Virus genome (UHGV): UHGV-0311442
Direction: 5' to 3' (one strand)
Length of the DNA stretch: 64,000 nucleotides
Origin: a virus
Below are positions 2,699-54,543 of this stretch, piece by piece. The translations under genes were made by a program, and so were the position numbers. Numbering within the stretch: position 1 is the stretch's first letter; each line of letters begins with the position of its first letter. A model generated the notes under the pieces. The model was not told the DNA's origin. It saw nothing but the letters and a program-made list of their open reading frames with translations, and searched no databases.

Positions 2699-4318
2699 TT
2701 ATGGGTTCTTTAATAACGCTTGCGTTGCACGTTTAATCACGTTGTTGATAGGATTGATTTTAAAGTTCCCATCAGAATCGAACCAGTAGTTTTTCGAGTG
2801 TATCCAATTCCGGTTTTCCTCGAGCGCTTCCTGGGACATAGGCGCGTTAAACGACCCGGTATCGCCGTCGTAGTCACCCCCTAAGCCACCTAGACGTGAG
2901 GGGTGTGGTGCCATAGACTCAACGAAGGTAGGAACCGACCGGTCAGGGTAGCTGATAGCCCCTCGGGGTTTTTCAGTTTCCCAGTCATCTTCCAGTTCTT
3001 TTAAGTATAAAGATGACGTGGTGGTCTCCAATCTTATGGTCGATGAATACGTCGAGCCTCGGCCTGTAACGGGATAACGTGTAACGAAACCGAAATAATC
3101 GTTCCAAAGTTCGTAGCCCGACAAATAAAGCAATTCGACGAGCGTCATACCGTGGACGAATTTTCGGTCAAACGTTTTAGGAAGTTCTTCAATATCGTAG
3201 AACACCTTAAAATGTTTGGTGTCTTGGTAAACCAACGCAACGTAGTGGGTGTCGTCCAACATAATCGGTTGATGGCGAAGCTCGCGAGCTTCCATTCGGT
3301 TGATTAAGGATTCAATCCCATCGTCGGTGGTAAAGGTGTCGTATACACGACCACCTACTTCCAAGAATTCACGTTTAAGGGTTTTGGTGTTTACGCCGTA
3401 AAGGTTGCCGTCACCAGCACGGATGTTACCGAGGTAACGTTCACGTATCTGGTATTGGGCGACAGGGAGTAATGCTTTTAAACCCTGGTATAAACCAATT
3501 TTGGTGTCGGTGGGACGAATAGCGTCTTCACGACCCATGCACTTAGACCCCGTCGAGAACGAGGACAGTACGTTACGTGTCCCGTTCATTAATTTACGAG
3601 ACGTCACTTTACGACGTTGGAAACCCCCTTTACCGTCTTGGATGTTAAAGAAATACATCCAGATATCGTTGAAGGTTTGTTGCAGCTTCCAGCGTACGGG
3701 GTTAGTTAATTCAACACGGGTTGCTCGGTCAGGGATCGCTCTGGCGAGTGATACCAACCGACGATACATCCCGCCGATTTCTTCTTCCTGCTCTCTACCA
3801 TCTTGTCGAATTACTAAATCGCGTAAACCCGCGGGTAACACGAGAACGTATCGACTAAGACTAACGGGACGGAATTTCAAAAAGAAATCCACGGTTTCGT
3901 CACGTTGTAGGGACTCGTTACGCTTAGGTTTTAAATCGTTATAGTGACTGAGGAAGAAGTTAAAACCGGTATCTGCGCCTGGGTCTCCCGGCAAGGCCGG
4001 TTCGAAATCTTTTTCTTTTTCGCTCCACGTTGCGTAGCGTTTTCCAGAACAAATTTCTTCGTAGAGTTGTTTGAGTTGGAATAACGCCAAACACACCGTC
4101 GGCGAAATGATATCGAGTTTAATATCGATATAAGAGAAAGTAGAGTCTCGCGCTTCACTCCCCGTGAGTCCAAATATCTCTGTAGAGTAAAGACCTTCGG
4201 GGTGAAAGTTTTTTGTTAACCCCTGGAAAGTATCCGTGGTCGTGACGGGTCGTAATCGCGACACAAGAGACTTGTTTACATTGAGCAGATAAAAGTCAAC
4301 CCAATTAAGTTTATTCAC
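2699..4318 (-). CDS. Multisubunit RNA polymerase beta-prime subunit, N-terminal fragment (split beta-prime)
   Basis: Track ORF of 539 aa with a GTG start 7 nt after AGGAG. By-eye matches to bacterial beta-prime: VLVLPAGLRDLV (cf. VLPVxPPxLRP), GKGGFQRRKVTSRKLMNGTRNVLS (cf. [21 protein letters not shown]) and GGDYDGDTGSFNAP (cf. NADFDGDQMAVHVP; nt ~2858-2880). The protein ends about 50 aa after the DxDGD motif. Confidence 0.85.
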   Translation of the reverse strand: MNKLNWVDFYLLNVNKSLVSRLRPVTTTDTFQGLTKNFHPEGLYSTEIFGLTGSEARDSTFSYIDIKLDIISPTVCLALFQLKQLYEEICSGKRYATWSEKEKDFEPALPGDPGADTGFNFFLSHYNDLKPKRNESLQRDETVDFFLKFRPVSLSRYVLVLPAGLRDLVIRQDGREQEEEIGGMYRRLVSLARAIPDRATRVELTNPVRWKLQQTFNDIWMYFFNIQDGKGGFQRRKVTSRKLMNGTRNVLSSFSTGSKCMGREDAIRPTDTKIGLYQGLKALLPVAQYQIRERYLGNIRAGDGNLYGVNTKTLKREFLEVGGRVYDTFTTDDGIESLINRMEARELRHQPIMLDDTHYVALVYQDTKHFKVFYDIEELPKTFDRKFVHGMTLVELLYLSGYELWNDYFGFVTRYPVTGRGSTYSSTIRLETTTSSLYLKELEDDWETEKPRGAISYPDRSVPTFVESMAPHPSRLGGLGGDYDGDTGSFNAPMSQEALEENRNWIHSKNYWFDSDGNFKINPINNVIKRATQALLKNP

Positions 4319-35546: not shown

Positions 35547-36002
35547 TCAGTACAAACACGATGTCAAGTATTGGTTATACGAATCGAGCAGTGTCTGACG
35601 GTCGGAACGGTAATTCCACAACAAATTATTGAGTTTACGCGATAAATCACGGCTAATCTCTTGGGGCGTTAAAGAACTTTCATCAAGAGATAAGCGTTCA
35701 GGTACAACATGTAACTTCGGTAACTCATAACGTTCACAAAGTGGAGCCAGCATTGGTGGGCTCCAGCCACGTTTAACGGCTTGTTGGTTTAAATTTCGGG
35801 TGTAGACATAAACGTAGTAAGCATAGGTGTTGACATCCGCAACATACTCACGCATTGCATTATTGTCAATTTTCCAATTCACCATTATTGGCGGTGTAGG
35901 AGGAAGTTCCAGTGGCCTATAAGCTGGACGTTTAACTTCGTCGCCGTAGCTATTACTCACCAACCCCACGAACACCATCATGATGAATAACAGCATTTTC
36001 AT
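35547..36002 (-). CDS. Secreted (signal-peptide) protein with a Pro-rich mature N-terminus
   Basis: The track ORF starts at a TTG at 36005. The ATG at 36002 (MKMLLFIMMVFVGLVSNSYG/DEV) lies 6 nt after AAGGAG. There is no lipobox Cys. Confidence 0.55.
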   Translation of the reverse strand: MKMLLFIMMVFVGLVSNSYGDEVKRPAYRPLELPPTPPIMVNWKIDNNAMREYVADVNTYAYYVYVYTRNLNQQAVKRGWSPPMLAPLCERYELPKLHVVPERLSLDESSLTPQEISRDLSRKLNNLLWNYRSDRQTLLDSYNQYLTSCLY

Positions 36003-36005
36003 CAA

Positions 36006-40723: not shown

Positions 40724-41233
40724 TTAGAAGAACGGCTGGTTTGGAATGACAGCGTACTCTAAAATGAACATGTGTTCTGGGGCGTCTTCTTTACGCCAGA
40801 CTTTGTGCGTCGTCACAAGTTTTTCCAGAATCGTTAAAAAACTACGCTGGCAGTATGTGTTTTCACCAAGCAGTAGATTTTGAAGTTCTACAGTAGCGTC
40901 CATATACGCCTGTTTAAAGACTAAACTACGATTATACTGTCCGGTAAAATTCCAAAGCAAGACTTTCCCTTCTTCGGTTTCTTTTACCGTTGGCCGTAAA
41001 CCACAAATCCACAACAAGGCAAGGTTGACGTTCCAGTCAAACTCTAAACCTTCTTCTTCGTCATCACCGAATGCTGTGGGTAAAGCATCGTAAAATTCGT
41101 GTTTCTCTGCGAATTCTTCATCTGACTTAATCTCGTCTTCGATGCTGCTTCGGACGATACTGTAAACGTCTTTCGCGGTCAATTGTGCGGCTTTTGTAAT
41201 GCCTTTATACCAATCGGTTACTACGATGCTCAA
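40724..41233 (-). CDS. Hypothetical protein
   Basis: Track ORF of 169 aa with a TTG start 7 nt after GAGGAG. It overlaps the stop of the SLT gene. Confidence 0.55.
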   Translation of the reverse strand: MSIVVTDWYKGITKAAQLTAKDVYSIVRSSIEDEIKSDEEFAEKHEFYDALPTAFGDDEEEGLEFDWNVNLALLWICGLRPTVKETEEGKVLLWNFTGQYNRSLVFKQAYMDATVELQNLLLGENTYCQRSFLTILEKLVTTHKVWRKEDAPEHMFILEYAVIPNQPFF

Positions 41234-41928
41234 AGGGTAACTCCTCTATTGATTGGAAAACTCGTGTTTATCGTATCCCAAATTTTACTAACTTCCGCCA
41301 ATTGAATCTGACGTGGTGTTTTCTTCGCAAACGCAAGCTGACGTGGGGCCGAGCCCACAACAACAGGCACATCGATTTTCGCGCTATAGAACGCGGCGTC
41401 TTTCATAAAGCCTGCCATTTCTCGTTGTGCTGCTCGAGATTTGCTTTTGATTCGCGTGTGAGCGCCACTTTCACCCCAGTGGTAAGCTAACGCAACTTCA
41501 GCCATGGTGGGCTTGCGTTTGAGTCGTTTGGTTAACCCCTTTTCAAGATGTTTAACATACGCGGCAGCCAGCAAAACAGCATTACGCGGATTATACAAAT
41601 CGGCGTTCTGACTAAGACCTAATTCTTTTCCATAAAGCCTTAGCAGATTACGCTTGGTACTTGGAAGCATCTGTACCAGGCTGTGTGCTCGTGAGCTTTT
41701 GTTGTAAGCCTTGGGATCAAAACGCGATTCACGATAAATCAGCGTAATCATCAGCTTAGGATCAACGCCTTGCTTTCGAGAGATTTCCACAATTAACGGG
41801 CTGACTTTTTCGAACCGATGTTGGATTTGTGTAAACTCACGCTGATGCTTAGATTGCGGCGTTGATGTTGACGCCTGTGCGTTAAACGCGAAAAGTGTTA
41901 CCAGTAAAAGAAAGAAGATACGAAACAT
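41230..41928 (-). CDS. Secreted lytic transglycosylase (SLT domain); candidate signal-peptide endolysin
   Basis: The track ORF starts at 41955. The ATG at 41928 after TGGAG gives MFRIFFLLLVTLFAFNAQA/ST, a Sec-type signal. SLT motifs: LIYRESRFDPKAYNKSSRAHSLVQMLPST, LYNPRNAVLLAAAYVKHL, ALAYHWGESG. Confidence 0.75.
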   Translation of the reverse strand: MFRIFFLLLVTLFAFNAQASTSTPQSKHQREFTQIQHRFEKVSPLIVEISRKQGVDPKLMITLIYRESRFDPKAYNKSSRAHSLVQMLPSTKRNLLRLYGKELGLSQNADLYNPRNAVLLAAAYVKHLEKGLTKRLKRKPTMAEVALAYHWGESGAHTRIKSKSRAAQREMAGFMKDAAFYSAKIDVPVVVGSAPRQLAFAKKTPRQIQLAEVSKIWDTINTSFPINRGVTL

Positions 41929-42010
41929 TTTGTTTCTCCAGTTGGATTTATACATTTCCGTATTCCGTAAGACGAAATGACGGCGCGGACAGCTAATACT
42001 CCTTTGTTGT

Positions 42011-42035
42011 GTGCCCTAATGATAATATCTATTTA
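42011..42035 (-). promoter_or_regulatory. Promoter-like motif, class B (minus orientation: TAAATAGATATTATCATTAGGGCAC)
   Basis: Same TAGATATTATC core as 32521-32545, again beginning with the TAG stop of the upstream gene. It lies upstream of the SLT gene. Confidence 0.4.
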
Positions 42036-42526
42036 AAAGAGTTTGGAATTAATGACTCTGCTTCTCGGTACAGCTTATCGGGTAAGTATAACGTGTAGTG
42101 TTGTCTCCTCGGTTCAAGTTTTTTGTAAAGCCACAAAAAGATTTCTTGTCTTTCCCAGGAATCTAACCACCCATTTGCCATCCCCAGTGGAGGGATAGCA
42201 ACGCTGGTATCCAGTTCCTCAACACAATCTGCTAATGCGGTAATGCCCGCAGTAACATAAGAAACCTGGGACTTTAAACGCCAATGTGTTTTCGTTGGGA
42301 GCAAGATGCACTTTTCATCAGGGTAAACGTAAACGCTTCCAATCTTAATTTCGTCTTCGCGACACCGCTTACGGTAATCTTGATAAAGGTTGGGGTAGCG
42401 TTCACGGCACGCCAGTGCAATACCGCGACCCATCGCTCCTACGCAGTTAATGGTAACGACTTTATAGTCTTCGGGCGCATTAAAAAGATCGTTACCAATT
42501 TCAGATTCTTTACGTACCGTTAACAT
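42029..42526 (-). CDS. Macrodomain protein, DarG/TARG1-like class (ADP-ribose hydrolase-like)
   Basis: The track ORF starts at a TTG at 42589. The ATG at 42526 (MLTVRKE...) is preferred but uncertain. VVTINCVGAMGRGIALACRERYPNLYQDYRKRC...LLPTKTHWRLKS...VAIPPLGMANGWLDSW matches by eye the DarG-type pattern NTVGVMGKGIALQFK..FP..Y..Y...C...NFPTKxHWRxxS...SxAxPxLGCGxGGLxW. Confidence 0.7.
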   Translation of the reverse strand: MLTVRKESEIGNDLFNAPEDYKVVTINCVGAMGRGIALACRERYPNLYQDYRKRCREDEIKIGSVYVYPDEKCILLPTKTHWRLKSQVSYVTAGITALADCVEELDTSVAIPPLGMANGWLDSWERQEIFLWLYKKLEPRRQHYTLYLPDKLYREAESLIPNSFK

Positions 42527-42613
42527 AACGAAACGCCCGGAGTTGATGTGTAGTATTAAAACGTGTACCGCCGATTGATAACTCGACAAGTATAGCGATA
42601 TATGTTTTACCCA

Positions 42614-47914: not shown

Positions 47915-47943
47915 TTTAATACTCCTTTAGGTAAACATGTCGT

Positions 47944-47970
47944 AAAAAGGACCCCGGACGTACCGGGGTC
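47944..47970 (-). terminator. Rho-independent terminator (minus strand)
   Basis: Stem gaccccgg/ccggggtc with loop acgta. The minus strand continues cttttt. Confidence 0.7.
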
Positions 47971-47980
47971 AAGACTACAC

Positions 47981-48370
47981 TCAATGATCTAATTCAATAG
48001 CACCAGCCATCTTGCCCCGTTCTTCGATAACAATCAGATAACGGTCGCGAGATTTGCTTTTAGCGAGAGTTAAGACAACAGTAGGGTCGCATGTTTTCGT
48101 GGTGATAGGAAGAACCTCTCTTTCGACGGAATCGAGCAGAAAGTAATAACCTGCGGGACACATTGTGCCACCGTCAGCTTTTACCAGAATATAGCGCCCG
48201 TCTGCGCCGACTTCTTGGCAGATTGTTTCACCGACTTCGCAAACTTCAAACCCCGGAGGATTGTACTGATAATCGGTATTGTTGTTTGGGGTTAGCAGTA
48301 AATCGTTAACTTGAGTAGATGCTGCTACACTCAGGGAGAAGAAGAATGCTAAAACGCAGACGAGACGCAT
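47981..48370 (-). CDS. Secreted small Cys-containing protein; paralog of 48381..48791
   Basis: Track ORF of 129 aa with signal-like MRLVCVLAFFFSLSVAAS. There are four Cys. CEVGETICQ...RYILVKADGGTMC corresponds to CTEIDGLYCQ...RYVFIVEQGGAWC in the neighbour. Confidence 0.6.
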   Translation of the reverse strand: MRLVCVLAFFFSLSVAASTQVNDLLLTPNNNTDYQYNPPGFEVCEVGETICQEVGADGRYILVKADGGTMCPAGYYFLLDSVEREVLPITTKTCDPTVVLTLAKSKSRDRYLIVIEERGKMAGAIELDH

Positions 48371-48380
48371 GAGTTACTCC

Positions 48381-48791
48381 TTAAATTTTAAGTTTATCCA
48401 TAGCTACAACGATAGGTTTTTCCGAAGTGTCTAATATCCCTACCATTGGCACACCATCTACGACTTCGAAGAATGGTTTGTTATTACCAGAGCATAGACG
48501 TTTGTCGTTGTATTCGAGACGTTGGGCCTTCCACGTTTCGAGGTTGAGTACAGACATTGGGCTGTCGTAGCACCAGGCACCACCTTGCTCAACGATGAAT
48601 ACGTATCTGCTACCTTTGTATTTAAACAGACTCTTCGCCTGACAGTACAACCCGTCAATTTCCGTACAATAGAAATCATCGGTGCTATTGACGTATTTAA
48701 TATTGTCTGGCAACTGAATCGTCTTTGCTGTAGCGTTGACAGAGAACAGAACAGCCATTGCAATGAGAAGAGTGTTGATGATAGTTTTCAT
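48381..48791 (-). CDS. Secreted small Cys-containing protein; paralog of 47981..48370
   Basis: Track ORF of 136 aa with signal-like MKTIINTLLIAMAVLFSVNATA/KT. It shares the four-Cys pattern with the neighbour. Confidence 0.6.
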   Translation of the reverse strand: MKTIINTLLIAMAVLFSVNATAKTIQLPDNIKYVNSTDDFYCTEIDGLYCQAKSLFKYKGSRYVFIVEQGGAWCYDSPMSVLNLETWKAQRLEYNDKRLCSGNNKPFFEVVDGVPMVGILDTSEKPIVVAMDKLKI

Positions 48792-48802
48792 GATAAAAGT
48801 CC

Positions 48803-49288
48803 TTAGTATTTAGATTGTTCTACGTATTTCTTAACCAGGTAAGCGAATTCAGCAACACCGATATCACCGAACCAAATCAGGTAACCGGGGTCGATGTTGT
48901 AGTAATAGCCGACGAGTTTCTTGGTGTGTGGGTTGTATAGCGTTACGATGTATTCCCAACCACAAGCGTTAGCTTTACAACCGCCGCTTTCAATCCAGAT
49001 TTTGTTGTTGATATTTACCGGATACATGTTACCGCCAGGGCCATCCATGTAACCTTTAGAGCCGAACATACCATCCAGTCCCACAGGGTCTAGTGTTTTA
49101 TCAACAACGGCTTTAAACGACTTATCGGTATCGTACAAGTCGTTGATGTTTGGGCACGCATTTGGCTGACCTTCCCAAGCGTTTCCATCGCAGGTAAGCA
49201 ATTCGTCTACGGAGGCCGCATCTACAGTTGGCGTGGCACCGATAAACAAGAAAACCAGAAAGAACATCAGTGTATGTAAACGTTTCAT
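48803..49288 (-). CDS. Secreted protein, Ivy-like (inhibitor of lysozyme / lytic transglycosylase family) candidate
   Basis: Track ORF of 161 aa with signal MKRLHTLMFFLVFLFIGATPTVDA/AS. IWIESGGCKANACGWEYIVTLYNPHTKKLVGYYYNID...LIWFGDIG aligns by eye with E. coli Ivy YQVMSACKPHDCGSQRIAVMWSEKSNQMTGLFSTID...LTWLNVND. The loop His is replaced (CKANAC; nt ~48959-48985). Confidence 0.4.
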   Translation of the reverse strand: MKRLHTLMFFLVFLFIGATPTVDAASVDELLTCDGNAWEGQPNACPNINDLYDTDKSFKAVVDKTLDPVGLDGMFGSKGYMDGPGGNMYPVNINNKIWIESGGCKANACGWEYIVTLYNPHTKKLVGYYYNIDPGYLIWFGDIGVAEFAYLVKKYVEQSKY

Positions 49289-49306
49289 TGTAACTACTCC
49301 TTTAGA

Positions 49307-49699
49307 TTATTCGGCAGGACGATTTAAGGTAACGCGTCCGATTAATTCGGCGTTGTGAAAGAAGTCCACAGCGGTATAATTACCAACGGATAATGGGTGA
49401 ATACTAACTGACATTACTTTCGGTTGTTCGCAAGCAATATCGGTTAGACGTTGGTAGACTTGCGCACGGGTGTCAGCAATGAGTAACCCCGTACACGCTT
49501 CACCACGCACTAAACGATAAACTTGCAGTTTACCGAAACTGCGCATTAACGTAGGCGTCTCATCCGGGTTGATAATCGGTGAGTCAGGAGCCGGTTCGTA
49601 ATAGCGGACATCCGAATCACCGAAAGCATAAGTGCCAGTAATTCCGACCGCACAGAAAATAATGATAGTATAAAGTATAGTTCTGATATTCATTTTCAC
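49307..49699 (-). CDS. Secreted or membrane-anchored small protein
   Basis: Track ORF of 130 aa (GTG at 49699; alternative ATG at 49693). The N-terminus IRTILYTIIIFCAVGITGTYA/FG is hydrophobic and signal-like. Confidence 0.55.
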   Translation of the reverse strand: MKMNIRTILYTIIIFCAVGITGTYAFGDSDVRYYEPAPDSPIINPDETPTLMRSFGKLQVYRLVRGEACTGLLIADTRAQVYQRLTDIACEQPKVMSVSIHPLSVGNYTAVDFFHNAELIGRVTLNRPAE

Positions 49700-49721
49700 G
49701 CACTCTAAAAAAGATTAATAG

Positions 49722-50183
49722 TTATTTGTTAGGACGGGTGTGCCCACAGTTTTGGAAGAAAGTTTCAGATAAACGATCGCCTTCTACGGTAAAGTTAGCG
49801 GCATCGTTACCATTGATACTCACACTGAAAGTTTTGGCATTACCGATAGCATTAACGAAAGCAACCCAAGCGTGTTCTGCCTTGTCACTACCGTCCACGG
49901 TAGGGATGTTATAGGTTTTGCCGTTTACGACAATATCCATCGTGTTATCTTCAGCGTTAGTTGCACCTACGGGTTCCCCGTAATACCAAACCATGCGACC
50001 GTAAAATTTGCGATTCGCAGTTTCAGTGTCACAGTTGATAGACAGTCCGTTTCCGGCGGTGTCTTCAATTTCGTAAACTGCCTGGCCAGGGTTTTGTATT
50101 TGTTCCCAGCTGTTGATAGCGGCGTGTGCAGTATTGAAACCGATTACGAAAAGGGCGATTAAAAAGGAAGTGAAGATTTTCAT
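49722..50183 (-). CDS. Secreted small protein
   Basis: Track ORF of 153 aa with signal MKIFTSFLIALFVIGFNTAHA/AI and an ATG after ATAAAGGAGC. It is the first gene after promoter-like motif 50231-50257. Confidence 0.6.
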   Translation of the reverse strand: MKIFTSFLIALFVIGFNTAHAAINSWEQIQNPGQAVYEIEDTAGNGLSINCDTETANRKFYGRMVWYYGEPVGATNAEDNTMDIVVNGKTYNIPTVDGSDKAEHAWVAFVNAIGNAKTFSVSINGNDAANFTVEGDRLSETFFQNCGHTRPNK

Positions 50184-50230
50184 TGTTTTGCTCCTTTATG
50201 GCGTTAATGTATAAAGAGTTAATCGTAACT

Positions 50231-50257
50231 CTCACCTAAGTAATATATATCTGAAAT
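50231..50257 (-). promoter_or_regulatory. Promoter-like motif, class A (minus orientation: ATTTCAGATATATATTACTTAGGTGAG)
   Basis: Near-identical to 54517-54543. It lies directly downstream (minus sense) of terminator 50276-50308 and ~50 nt upstream of the ATG at 50183. The upstream flank is AT-rich. Confidence 0.5.
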
Positions 50258-50275
50258 TATTTTTAATATTAACGA

Positions 50276-50308
50276 ACAAAAAATAAAAGGTGGGGGTAAA
50301 CCCCCACC
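50276..50308 (-). terminator. Rho-independent terminator (minus strand)
   Basis: Stem ggtggggg/cccccacc with loop taaa. The minus strand continues ttttatttttt. Confidence 0.8.
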
Positions 50309-53510: not shown

Positions 53511-54248
53511 TTACGCGGTTTTAATTAACAGCAGATAGTCCTTCGTAATCTCAGCACAACCCCACCCTCTCATCGCGGCGATTTTACGAAGATCAATTTT
53601 CTCGTGATATCTCAATAAGGGATCGCCTGAGTTAATCTCAACCAGGTGTGTGGCTTTAGAAATCGTTTCTACATCAGGGATCTGTTTTGCTAAGTCGGAT
53701 GCAATTAACTCGATGATACGGTATCCCTCTAACACAGAAACATAGATGCGCAAACCATATAGCGTGCCTTCGTCTTCTAATGGACAAAGATCGATGCCGG
53801 GTCCAAGCAGTGATAACTCGACGTTATCGGGAAGGTTTTCTGCATTTCGGAGTAACCCTATCCCATTTCTAAACAGAGGGAAGTAAGAGAATAGTGGTGG
53901 TAAAGCCCAACCGTTCCCAATAAGCACATCAGCGATACTCGTAGGTGTGTTCGCAAGAAGACGAATGTGGTCAGCCACAACTTCAAGTTCGGCGTCACTG
54001 ATCAACTTATAGATTAACATGACACTGGTTTCGGTATTAATAACAAAGAAGACGCGGTTGGCGTAACTGCCTATCACGTATTCGTCAATCATACAGTCGA
54101 TAACGTCACTGTCTGGATAATCTTCAGGTTTAATTGTTCCAGCATCGATTAACTTAGCAGGTTGCGATTGTTTTATTAGTTCGTTAACCACCGTAGAAGA
54201 AAGTTCTAAACTGGTGTTGGTAAAGATATCGTCTAATAATTCTTTCAT
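53511..54248 (-). CDS. Member of the tandem paralog family (most divergent C-terminus)
   Basis: Track ORF of 245 aa. The C-terminus is RGWGCAEITKDYLLLIKTA, and the N-terminus matches 50904..51677. Confidence 0.6.
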   Translation of the reverse strand: MKELLDDIFTNTSLELSSTVVNELIKQSQPAKLIDAGTIKPEDYPDSDVIDCMIDEYVIGSYANRVFFVINTETSVMLIYKLISDAELEVVADHIRLLANTPTSIADVLIGNGWALPPLFSYFPLFRNGIGLLRNAENLPDNVELSLLGPGIDLCPLEDEGTLYGLRIYVSVLEGYRIIELIASDLAKQIPDVETISKATHLVEINSGDPLLRYHEKIDLRKIAAMRGWGCAEITKDYLLLIKTA

Positions 54249-54402: not shown

Positions 54403-54487
54403 CCGGTATCCCGAGTAGCAGAATAAAGGGACATAATGTAATTTTTAGTAACCTTTAACGAAAGGTACTAAAAGGGTAACGTGTCCG

Positions 54488-54516
54488 TAGGGACTGAACT
54501 GGTACTTCAGTCCCTA
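54488..54516 (-). other. 11-bp hairpin (tagggactgaa/ttcagtcccta) immediately downstream (minus sense) of promoter-like motif 54517-54543
   Basis: Read directly from the sequence. It would form the 5' end of a minus-strand transcript. Confidence 0.55.
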
Positions 54517-54543
54517 TTCACTTAAGTAAAATATATCTGAAAT
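54517..54543 (-). promoter_or_regulatory. Promoter-like motif, class A (minus orientation: ATTTCAGATATATTTTACTTAAGTGAA)
   Basis: Near-identical to 50231-50257. It points toward the paralog array but lies ~270 nt upstream of its first ATG (54248). Confidence 0.45.

Follow-up and report, generated by a model that had tools for sequence, protein, structure and literature searches.

The closest described counterparts of the locus reported here are found in phages and in Enterobacteriaceae. In the jumbo phage SPN3US and its relatives (Erskinevirus, Machinavirus, and Wellingtonvirus), gp180-gp183 and their orthologs are all annotated as hypothetical proteins. In the CP4-6 island of Escherichia coli K-12, the genes yafY and ykfB are adjacent, and YafY has reportedly been mentioned in studies of how the Cpx system responds to lipoprotein stress. 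In vitro, Ivy is an inhibitor of C-type lysozyme and also, partly or weakly, of lytic transglycosylases (PMC10139938). These families are already catalogued as uncharacterised, and we found no published link among gp180-183-type genes, yfjS/yafY together with yfjT/ykfB, and an Ivy-like protein. Here, we analyze a block of five adjacent minus-strand open reading frames (genes A to E) in a 64,000-nucleotide stretch of the virus genome UHGV-0311442, hereafter the window. Our best inference is that the block acts early and in the periplasm, protecting the envelope or excluding superinfecting phages, and that one of its products inhibits muramidases or transglycosylases.

The five genes, all on the minus strand, fall into three families. 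Gene A (49722-50183) encodes an exported-type YfjT/YkfB-family protein of 153 amino acids with a conserved cysteine pair (C51 and C146). Gene B (49307-49699) encodes 130 amino acids from a GTG codon, its probable start by comparison with orthologs being an ATG at 49693, which gives 128 amino acids; it has two cysteines and is the most divergent of the B/D/E paralogs. The product of gene C (48803-49288; 161 amino acids) is Ivy-like but divergent; it has a CKANACG loop and, towards its N-terminus, one additional cysteine pair. Genes D (48381-48791; 136 amino acids; phrog_8968) and E (47981-48370; 129 amino acids; phrog_5248) are paralogs with four cysteines each. Gaps of 22, 18, 11, and 10 nucleotides separate the genes from A through E, and a Shine-Dalgarno sequence is clear at four of the five starts. 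Since three of the five genes are tandem paralogs, their clustering is not due to chance.

The terminators that a first-pass annotation of the sequence had placed on either side of the block were both recovered by our terminator scan. One closes the upstream unit (GGTGGGGGTTTACCCCCACC and then a run of T, 50289-50308, minus strand) and the other ends the block (GACCCCGGTACGTCCGGGGTC and then a run of T, 47941-47970, minus strand). Each hairpin (50308-50289 and 47970-47950 in the scan) consists of eight pairs, seven of them G-C, followed by the T-run, and the scan found no convincing internal terminator between the two. The block thus looks like a single transcription unit of exported proteins, as had been proposed, and the gaps, the terminators, and the promoter-like motif described next all support this view.

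Predicted early promoters of phiKZ-like phages lie upstream of early operons and follow an AT-rich consensus, ...TTTCARR..TATATTAC...GTG (PMC7058600, Table 2). The strings given in that study are TBYAWWWWWTTTCARRYAKATATTATYWAAGTGWA for N1M2, ...WTTTRARR_BTATATTACDWHDGTG for 201phi2-1, and TATATTAC for phiKZ. We find that the motif preceding the block (ATTTCAGATATATATTACTTAGGTGAG, 50231-50257, minus strand) matches this predicted consensus, with its AATTTCAGATATATATTACTTAGGTGAG fitting the published strings. The window contains two copies of the motif (50257-50231 and 54543-54517), against 0.04 expected by chance, so that its presence before the block, first noticed from the sequence alone, is well founded. 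The exact string TATATTAC was also tried by itself as an enriched signal and rejected; only the longer motif is overrepresented. The same motif precedes the orthologous unit in SPN3US, SPAsTU, Asesino, phiEaH2, and pEa_SNUABM_9. Given the match to the predicted early consensus, we interpret the block as early-expressed, with transcription presumably carried out by the virion RNA polymerase that is injected.

Directly after the motif lies a short stem-loop (GAGAGTTA-cgat-TAACTCT, 50215-50232, minus strand; RNA fold -8.8 kcal/mol, z = -2.5) that the transcript presumably carries at its 5' end. The second motif copy (ATTTCAGATATATTTTACTTAAGTGAA, 54517-54543, minus strand), upstream of minus-strand genes that start at 54248, is likewise followed by a stem-loop, a strong one (54485-54516, minus strand; -19 kcal/mol, z = -4.2). 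Every motif copy directly precedes a hairpin, those outside the window lying at 3926-3942 of locus L001 and at 1300-1318 of locus L003. Hairpin sequence varies by locus (SPN3US, Asesino, and the second window copy) and the fold is kept, with z from -2.5 to -4.2 in four of the five stretches folded. Such hairpins might structure the 5' ends of early transcripts, or else contribute to recognition of the promoter. SPN3US has a terminator-like hairpin and T-run (GGCTACCTTCGGGTAGCC TATTCTTTTTT; L001 3947-3976) between the motif and gp180, whereas in the window the terminator stands upstream of the motif. The SPN3US placement could reflect attenuation, or simply another arrangement.

All five N-termini resemble signal peptides, which agrees with the earlier annotation. 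Each is short and positively charged (one or two basic residues), continues into a hydrophobic stretch (best 12-residue Kyte-Doolittle mean, 2.6-2.9), and ends in a small-x-small site. The putative cleavage sites of A to E are AHA/A, TYA/F, VDA/A, ATA/K, and VAA/S, respectively, the slash marking the cut. The mature proteins would contain 2, 2, 4, 4, and 4 cysteines, and this even count in every protein fits periplasmic disulfides. The n-h-c layout of the N-terminus is kept in all orthologs despite sequence drift. This conservation, our signal-peptide heuristic, and homology to proteins that are annotated or reported to reside in the envelope (the YfjS/YafY lipoproteins and periplasmic Ivy) together suggest that the block proteins are exported.

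We considered other kinds of membrane protein. No lipobox cysteine is present in B, D, or E. An L-A-A-C sequence occurs in SPN3US gp180 only and is not shared by its orthologs; for want of a conserved lipobox, we rejected B as a lipoprotein. We likewise rejected a spanin or holin, there being no pair of a lipobox protein with a transmembrane protein and no later transmembrane segments. Outside the block, the window encodes another small protein with a convincing signal peptide-like N-terminus (MMKMLLFIMMVFVGLVS; 35547-36005, minus strand; 152 amino acids, two cysteines), for which a Pfam search returned no match.

The N-terminal features also bear on whether the five might be virion or assembly proteins, with hydrophobic N-termini that are not signal peptides. 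Virion proteins are said to be the products of about 46% of the SPN3US genome (PMC5105663), which would favour such a role. However, gp180-183 go unmentioned in the main text of PMC5105663 and PMC5694885 (virion/head proteome) and of PMC7411985 (capsid assembly). Furthermore, the n-h-c layout, the AxA sites, and the even cysteine counts are conserved, homologs occur in non-phage islands, and the related families include a lipoprotein family and a periplasmic inhibitor family. We give almost no credence to a role in the virion or its assembly.

By protein-level synteny, the window phage falls with the SPN3US-like (phiKZ-related) jumbo phages, as a divergent one, alongside members of Seoulvirus, Erskinevirus, Machinavirus, and Wellingtonvirus. 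A near-identity DNA search of the phage collection returned no match to the window save the promoter motif, and the absence of any near-identical record indicates that the window phage is not in that collection. The motif is also the sole part of the region with a DNA-level (megablast) match to SPN3US-like phages, where several sites occur per genome. SPN3US gp180-gp183 and their orthologs in Erskinevirus, Machinavirus, and Wellingtonvirus include genes directly orthologous to B, D, and E (30-51% identity). Gene order matches that of the window, with the block upstream of two conserved genes and an SMC/SbcC-like gene, and the same promoter motif is present. These phages differ in lacking A and in carrying, instead of the unrelated Ivy-like C of the window, a fourth paralog, X; we found X at this place in SPN3US, Asesino, phiEaH2, and Wellington.

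Conservation of the block among related jumbo phages was a question raised by the first-pass annotation. The B-(X)-D-E core (SPN3US gp180-183) is syntenic in every SPN3US-like phage examined, whereas the presence of A and C varies among related phages. In several relatives, a conserved gene for a protein of about 79 amino acids that lacks a signal peptide (MELVIANNAG...RYRVI.C) lies directly upstream of the B ortholog (L002 3866-4105; L004 2774-3013; L006 2799-3038; L008 2631-2876). This gene is lacking in the window and in SPN3US.

The nearest relative of the window phage is NZ_CP134650.1 (locus L023), a circular 222-kb "plasmid" of Enterobacter ludwigii that is 81% identical over 91% of a 20-kb query and carries the same five genes as the block. 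Identity between the two is 93-95% for A and B, 75-79% for D and E, 62% for C, and 76-91% for flanking genes. Within the block, C therefore changes fastest or is replaced most often (62%, versus 75-95% for the others). The record suggests a jumbo phage that persists in, or was co-assembled with, a bacterial isolate. It was deposited as non-mobilizable, and the source of the isolate is a gull.

Genes B, D, and E, together with X, form a family of paralogs. A Pfam search alone returned nothing usable for the five block proteins. In contrast, four of them have PHROG families: A matches phrog_3429 (2.8e-7), B matches phrog_9424 (1.6e-40) with a cross-match to phrog_5248, and the PHROG matches cross among B, D, and E. 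Profile comparison of ortholog alignments (hhalign) links E to D (probability 97%, E = 2e-11), to X (96%, E = 2e-9), and to B (71%, E = 3.9e-5, with the cysteine pair aligned). It gives no direct link between D and B, and leaves the B/D/E family unlinked both to the C family and to A. In an alignment of 28 sequences, all four cysteines of D, E, and X line up; B keeps just the second pair. B has orthologs in nine of the nine related phages examined. An exhaustive HMMER search of 1.84 billion representative proteins returned just 30 clusters at E<=0.001, indicating that the B/D/E family is narrow.

The predicted structure of E is a seven-strand, two-blade beta-propeller-like fold. Its best structural matches are propeller pieces, including TolB-like ones and the self-assembling PH1500 and Pizza, and no inhibitor relative is among the matches, which tells against the inhibitor-type folds suggested at first. 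When the PDB was searched by sequence with A, or by profile with A and the E/D/X family, matches did not rise above chance level. A propeller-like assembly of the paralogs is an idea that the modelled two-blade architecture and the co-expression of the genes would allow; it has no support beyond the fold. One explanation built on it is that the paralogs form a periplasmic pseudo-propeller oligomer that mimics or captures an envelope machine (e.g., Tol-Pal), thereby blocking competitors or aiding genome delivery or release. The two-blade unit, with its TolB-like, PH1500, and Pizza matches, and the retention of three or four co-expressed paralogs in every relative would agree with this, and we nevertheless regard it as very improbable.

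Gene A clearly belongs to the YfjT/YkfB family by sequence (Pfam PF27224 in precomputed annotations). It matches K-12 YfjT at 1.5e-14 and YkfB at 3.4e-14 (BLASTP, small database), and a plasmid-borne ykfB at 4e-7 (tblastn, plasmid collection). The alignment with YfjT/YkfB is full length and has 20 invariant columns, including both cysteines. The B/D/E family is probably a distant relative of the lipoproteins YfjS/YafY, judging by the alignments. Compared with the single K-12 YfjS sequence, the E/D/X family scores hhalign probabilities of 83-85% (E about 6-9e-6), with the second cysteine pair and the motif C-x-G-x-Y-Y-x-L-x-D matching. Several pairwise matches fall at 1e-4 to 2e-5, the best of them (1.8e-5) being full length. 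YfjS was not among the 30 matches of the exhaustive HMMER search with the B/D/E family.

Gene order supports the same relationship. In islands of Yersinia rohdei and Pantoea ananatis, an X-type homolog has a WYL regulator on one side and YfjT on the other; discounting the small ypjK gene, yfjS occupies the same place in K-12 CP4-57. We find homologs of all three families (A; B/D/E; C) in CP4-57/CP4-6-type islands of Enterobacteriaceae. Because the same three families adjoin in CP4-type islands, the block can be seen as a mobile-element "periplasmic module" common to jumbo phages and islands. The first-pass annotation had ranked the block as a candidate for an undescribed system. That label is too strong: four of the proteins have PHROG families, the core is present in all SPN3US-like phages examined, and homologs, including yfjS/yafY and yfjT/ykfB, reside in CP4-type islands.

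This distribution could also mean that the genes are accessory "moron" cargo exchanged with host islands, of benefit to the host or to a carrier or episomal state more than to the lytic cycle (for example, through resistance to lysozyme, colicins, or type VI secretion system muramidase effectors, or through modulation of envelope stress). All three families are found in CP4-type islands, the presence of A and C varies among related phages, and the circular E. ludwigii "plasmid" suggests persistence in a host; the reported citation of YafY in Cpx stress work also favours this view. On the other hand, synteny of the B-D-E core is conserved in every SPN3US-like phage examined, and the core stands behind a phage-specific early-promoter motif, which argues for a role in infection. 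Moreover, a cargo function overlaps with exclusion, since exclusion likewise protects the infected cell. We consider the cargo explanation unlikely.

A homolog of gene C is absent from the corresponding blocks of the other phages compared, and tblastn found no match in 50,697 phage records. In contrast, homologs 60-66% identical to C occur in E. coli chromosomes (138 of 5,426 complete genomes), where all are annotated as hypothetical. These lie within CP4-type islands in all five loci inspected, with a dynamin-like GTPase/YjcZ/patatin group on one side and DUF932-antirestriction-RadC-CbeA/CbtA genes on the other. Some E. coli alleles (P0012, P0014, P0016, P0017, and P0020; 213-227 amino acids) are called with an N-terminal extension of about 65 residues. 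This extension resembles the start of a neighbouring 180-amino-acid exported protein (L010 7098-7640), which suggests a deletion that fused two adjacent genes. The 180-amino-acid island protein was itself tried as a relative of the E family, and this was unsupported (hhalign 3.6%).

Several comparisons point to a relationship between C and Ivy. The C sequence GGCKANACGWEYIVTLY resembles SACKPHDCGSQRIAVMW of Ivy, and a BLASTP comparison with E. coli Ivy scores 28 bits (E = 2e-5, calculated for that comparison alone), with about 23% identity over 52 residues that include the loop. When the C family profile was searched against the PDB, the Ivy entries 1GPQ and 1XS0 were among just three sequences at E<=10. 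The C, K, and C of the Ivy loop CKPHDC, and the G that follows, are conserved and aligned. The loop reads CKANAC in the window, CKAHAC in E. coli P0007, and CKSNAC, CKSDAC, or CKANTC elsewhere; the window and its Enterobacter relative differ here (CKANAC and CKSDAC, respectively). The divergence of C and this loop difference form a pattern that would be expected of a protein under conflict. Thus, of the lysozyme-inhibitor relationships initially suggested, Ivy alone finds an echo, in one gene and below curated cut-offs, while the block proteins show no family-profile or fold match to PliC/MliC or PliG.

An inhibitor of this kind might serve the phage itself. In a lysis-timing explanation, the exported proteins, above all C, would restrain the phage's own SLT-type endolysin or host lytic transglycosylases until the end of the cycle. 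The window does encode such an enzyme (41230-41955, minus strand; 241 amino acids; Pfam SLT, 1.1e-14), with a signal peptide-like or signal-arrest-release (SAR)-like N-terminus (MYKSNWRNKMFRIFFLLLVTLFAFNAQAS). It is the conserved "putative endolysin" of the clade, 48-55% identical in SPN3US-like phages, and the partial inhibition of lytic transglycosylases by Ivy-type proteins in vitro (PMC10139938) would be consistent with this. However, the endolysin is conserved across the clade, yet C was found in this lineage only (no tblastn match in 50,697 phage records), and its absence from other phages with the same endolysin weakens the explanation. Membrane tethering and holins are the usual means of keeping exported or SAR endolysins in check. 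In addition, one would hardly expect a lysis regulator to have an early promoter, and homologs in non-lytic islands would have no partner enzyme. Control of lysis timing is, in our judgement, a rather improbable function.

We tentatively propose, with confidence a little short of even, that the block is an early unit of five small Sec-exported, disulfide-bonded periplasmic proteins from three families that protect the envelope of the infected cell. Transcription of the unit by the virion RNA polymerase would begin shortly after injection, and its products would be exported and oxidised in the periplasm. There they would act as binding or inhibitor proteins that shield the wall and envelope. 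The disulfide-closed loop of C would inhibit a muramidase or lytic transglycosylase, the most plausible targets being enzymes on the tails of superinfecting phages, while the YfjS-like and YfjT-like proteins would bind other envelope targets. Ivy is the sole family here with known biochemistry, and early production of such a protein would most plausibly shield the host wall from the tail muramidases or transglycosylases of later-arriving phages, much as T4 Sp does.

A number of observations weigh against envelope protection. The signal peptides were called by our own loose heuristic rather than by a trained predictor, and it flagged 15 of the 71 greedy open reading frames of the window. Early timing is suggested by a promoter consensus that was itself predicted bioinformatically. 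A and C are missing from SPN3US and most of its relatives, indicating that they are not essential partners of B, D, and E. The resemblance of C to Ivy is distant: nine of 13 C-family members match Pfam Ivy (PF08816) below threshold (best 0.0077, 16.8 bits, against a cut-off of 21), and window C has no Pfam match at E<=1. Against the NCBIfam model NF007443 ("Ivy family C-type lysozyme inhibitor"), window C scores 18.6 bits (E = 0.0013) against a cut-off of 180; the E. coli homolog of C reaches 3.9e-4. Since C falls below both curated cut-offs, we call it Ivy-like and not a member of the Ivy family. The likeness also draws on a mediocre predicted structure of C (predicted local distance difference test score, 60.5), and the key loop His of Ivy is Asn in window C (it is His in E. 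coli P0007 and Asn or Asp in others). E. coli Ivy is itself a weak lytic-transglycosylase inhibitor (PMC10139938). Finally, a full-text literature search found no functional study of YfjS, YafY, YfjT, or YkfB.

A bolder version of the proposal joins these elements. The YfjS-like paralogs, the YfjT-like protein, and the Ivy-like protein could constitute a previously unrecognised periplasmic exclusion or defence module, common to jumbo phages (where it would be early) and CP4-type islands. A hetero-oligomeric propeller would block penetration by competitors, and the Ivy-like subunit would neutralise their tail muramidases. We give this version only a slim chance of being right. If true, it would provide a function for four long-standing E. 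coli y-genes (yfjS, yafY, yfjT, and ykfB). Should the envelope-protection proposal itself be right, C would be a phage-borne relative of the Ivy inhibitors of lysozyme and transglycosylase, with none similar found in 50,697 deposited phage genomes. The loop difference between close relatives would then be the expected signature of a conflict over peptidoglycan-cleaving enzymes. The proposal would also link an early operon conserved in SPN3US-like phages with two gene pairs from E. coli cryptic prophages, yfjS-yfjT and yafY-ykfB, which belong to the uncharacterised "y-ome", so that one set of experiments could assign function in both. Lastly, it would imply that strictly lytic jumbo phages of the nucleus-forming type and integrative islands exchange genes.

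Elsewhere in the window, we observed a 186-amino-acid protein with a Macro domain (Pfam, 5.4e-6; 42029-42589, minus strand), which might have an ADP-ribose-binding or -removing function.

Placed beside known systems, the block is less exceptional as phage biology than the first-pass annotation held. It had called the export of small periplasmic proteins by a phage unusual, and yet T4 does the same with Imm and Sp (spackle). Both are envelope-located, early-made proteins of a lytic phage, and Sp inhibits the tail lysozyme of incoming phages; the likeness to the block is one of functional analogy only. "Lysozyme modulation" is a term to which a review (PMC11436027) alludes in this connection. 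Compared with Ivy (PF08816, NF007443; PDB 1GPQ, 1XS0, and 1UUZ), window C has an extra N-terminal cysteine pair, and its gene occurs in a lytic jumbo phage and in CP4-type islands, whereas ivy occupies a chromosomal locus. As to the K-12 pairs yfjS-yfjT (CP4-57) and yafY-ykfB (CP4-6), phage A aligns over its full length with YfjT/YkfB and keeps the cysteine pair. YfjS and YafY are lipoproteins with a lipobox, whereas in most phage proteins the signal peptide is of the plain type, without a conserved lipobox. Phage D, E, and X further differ from YfjS/YafY in a second disulfide. Where K-12 has gene pairs, the phages have three to four tandem paralogs, and identity between the two sides is just 20-27%.

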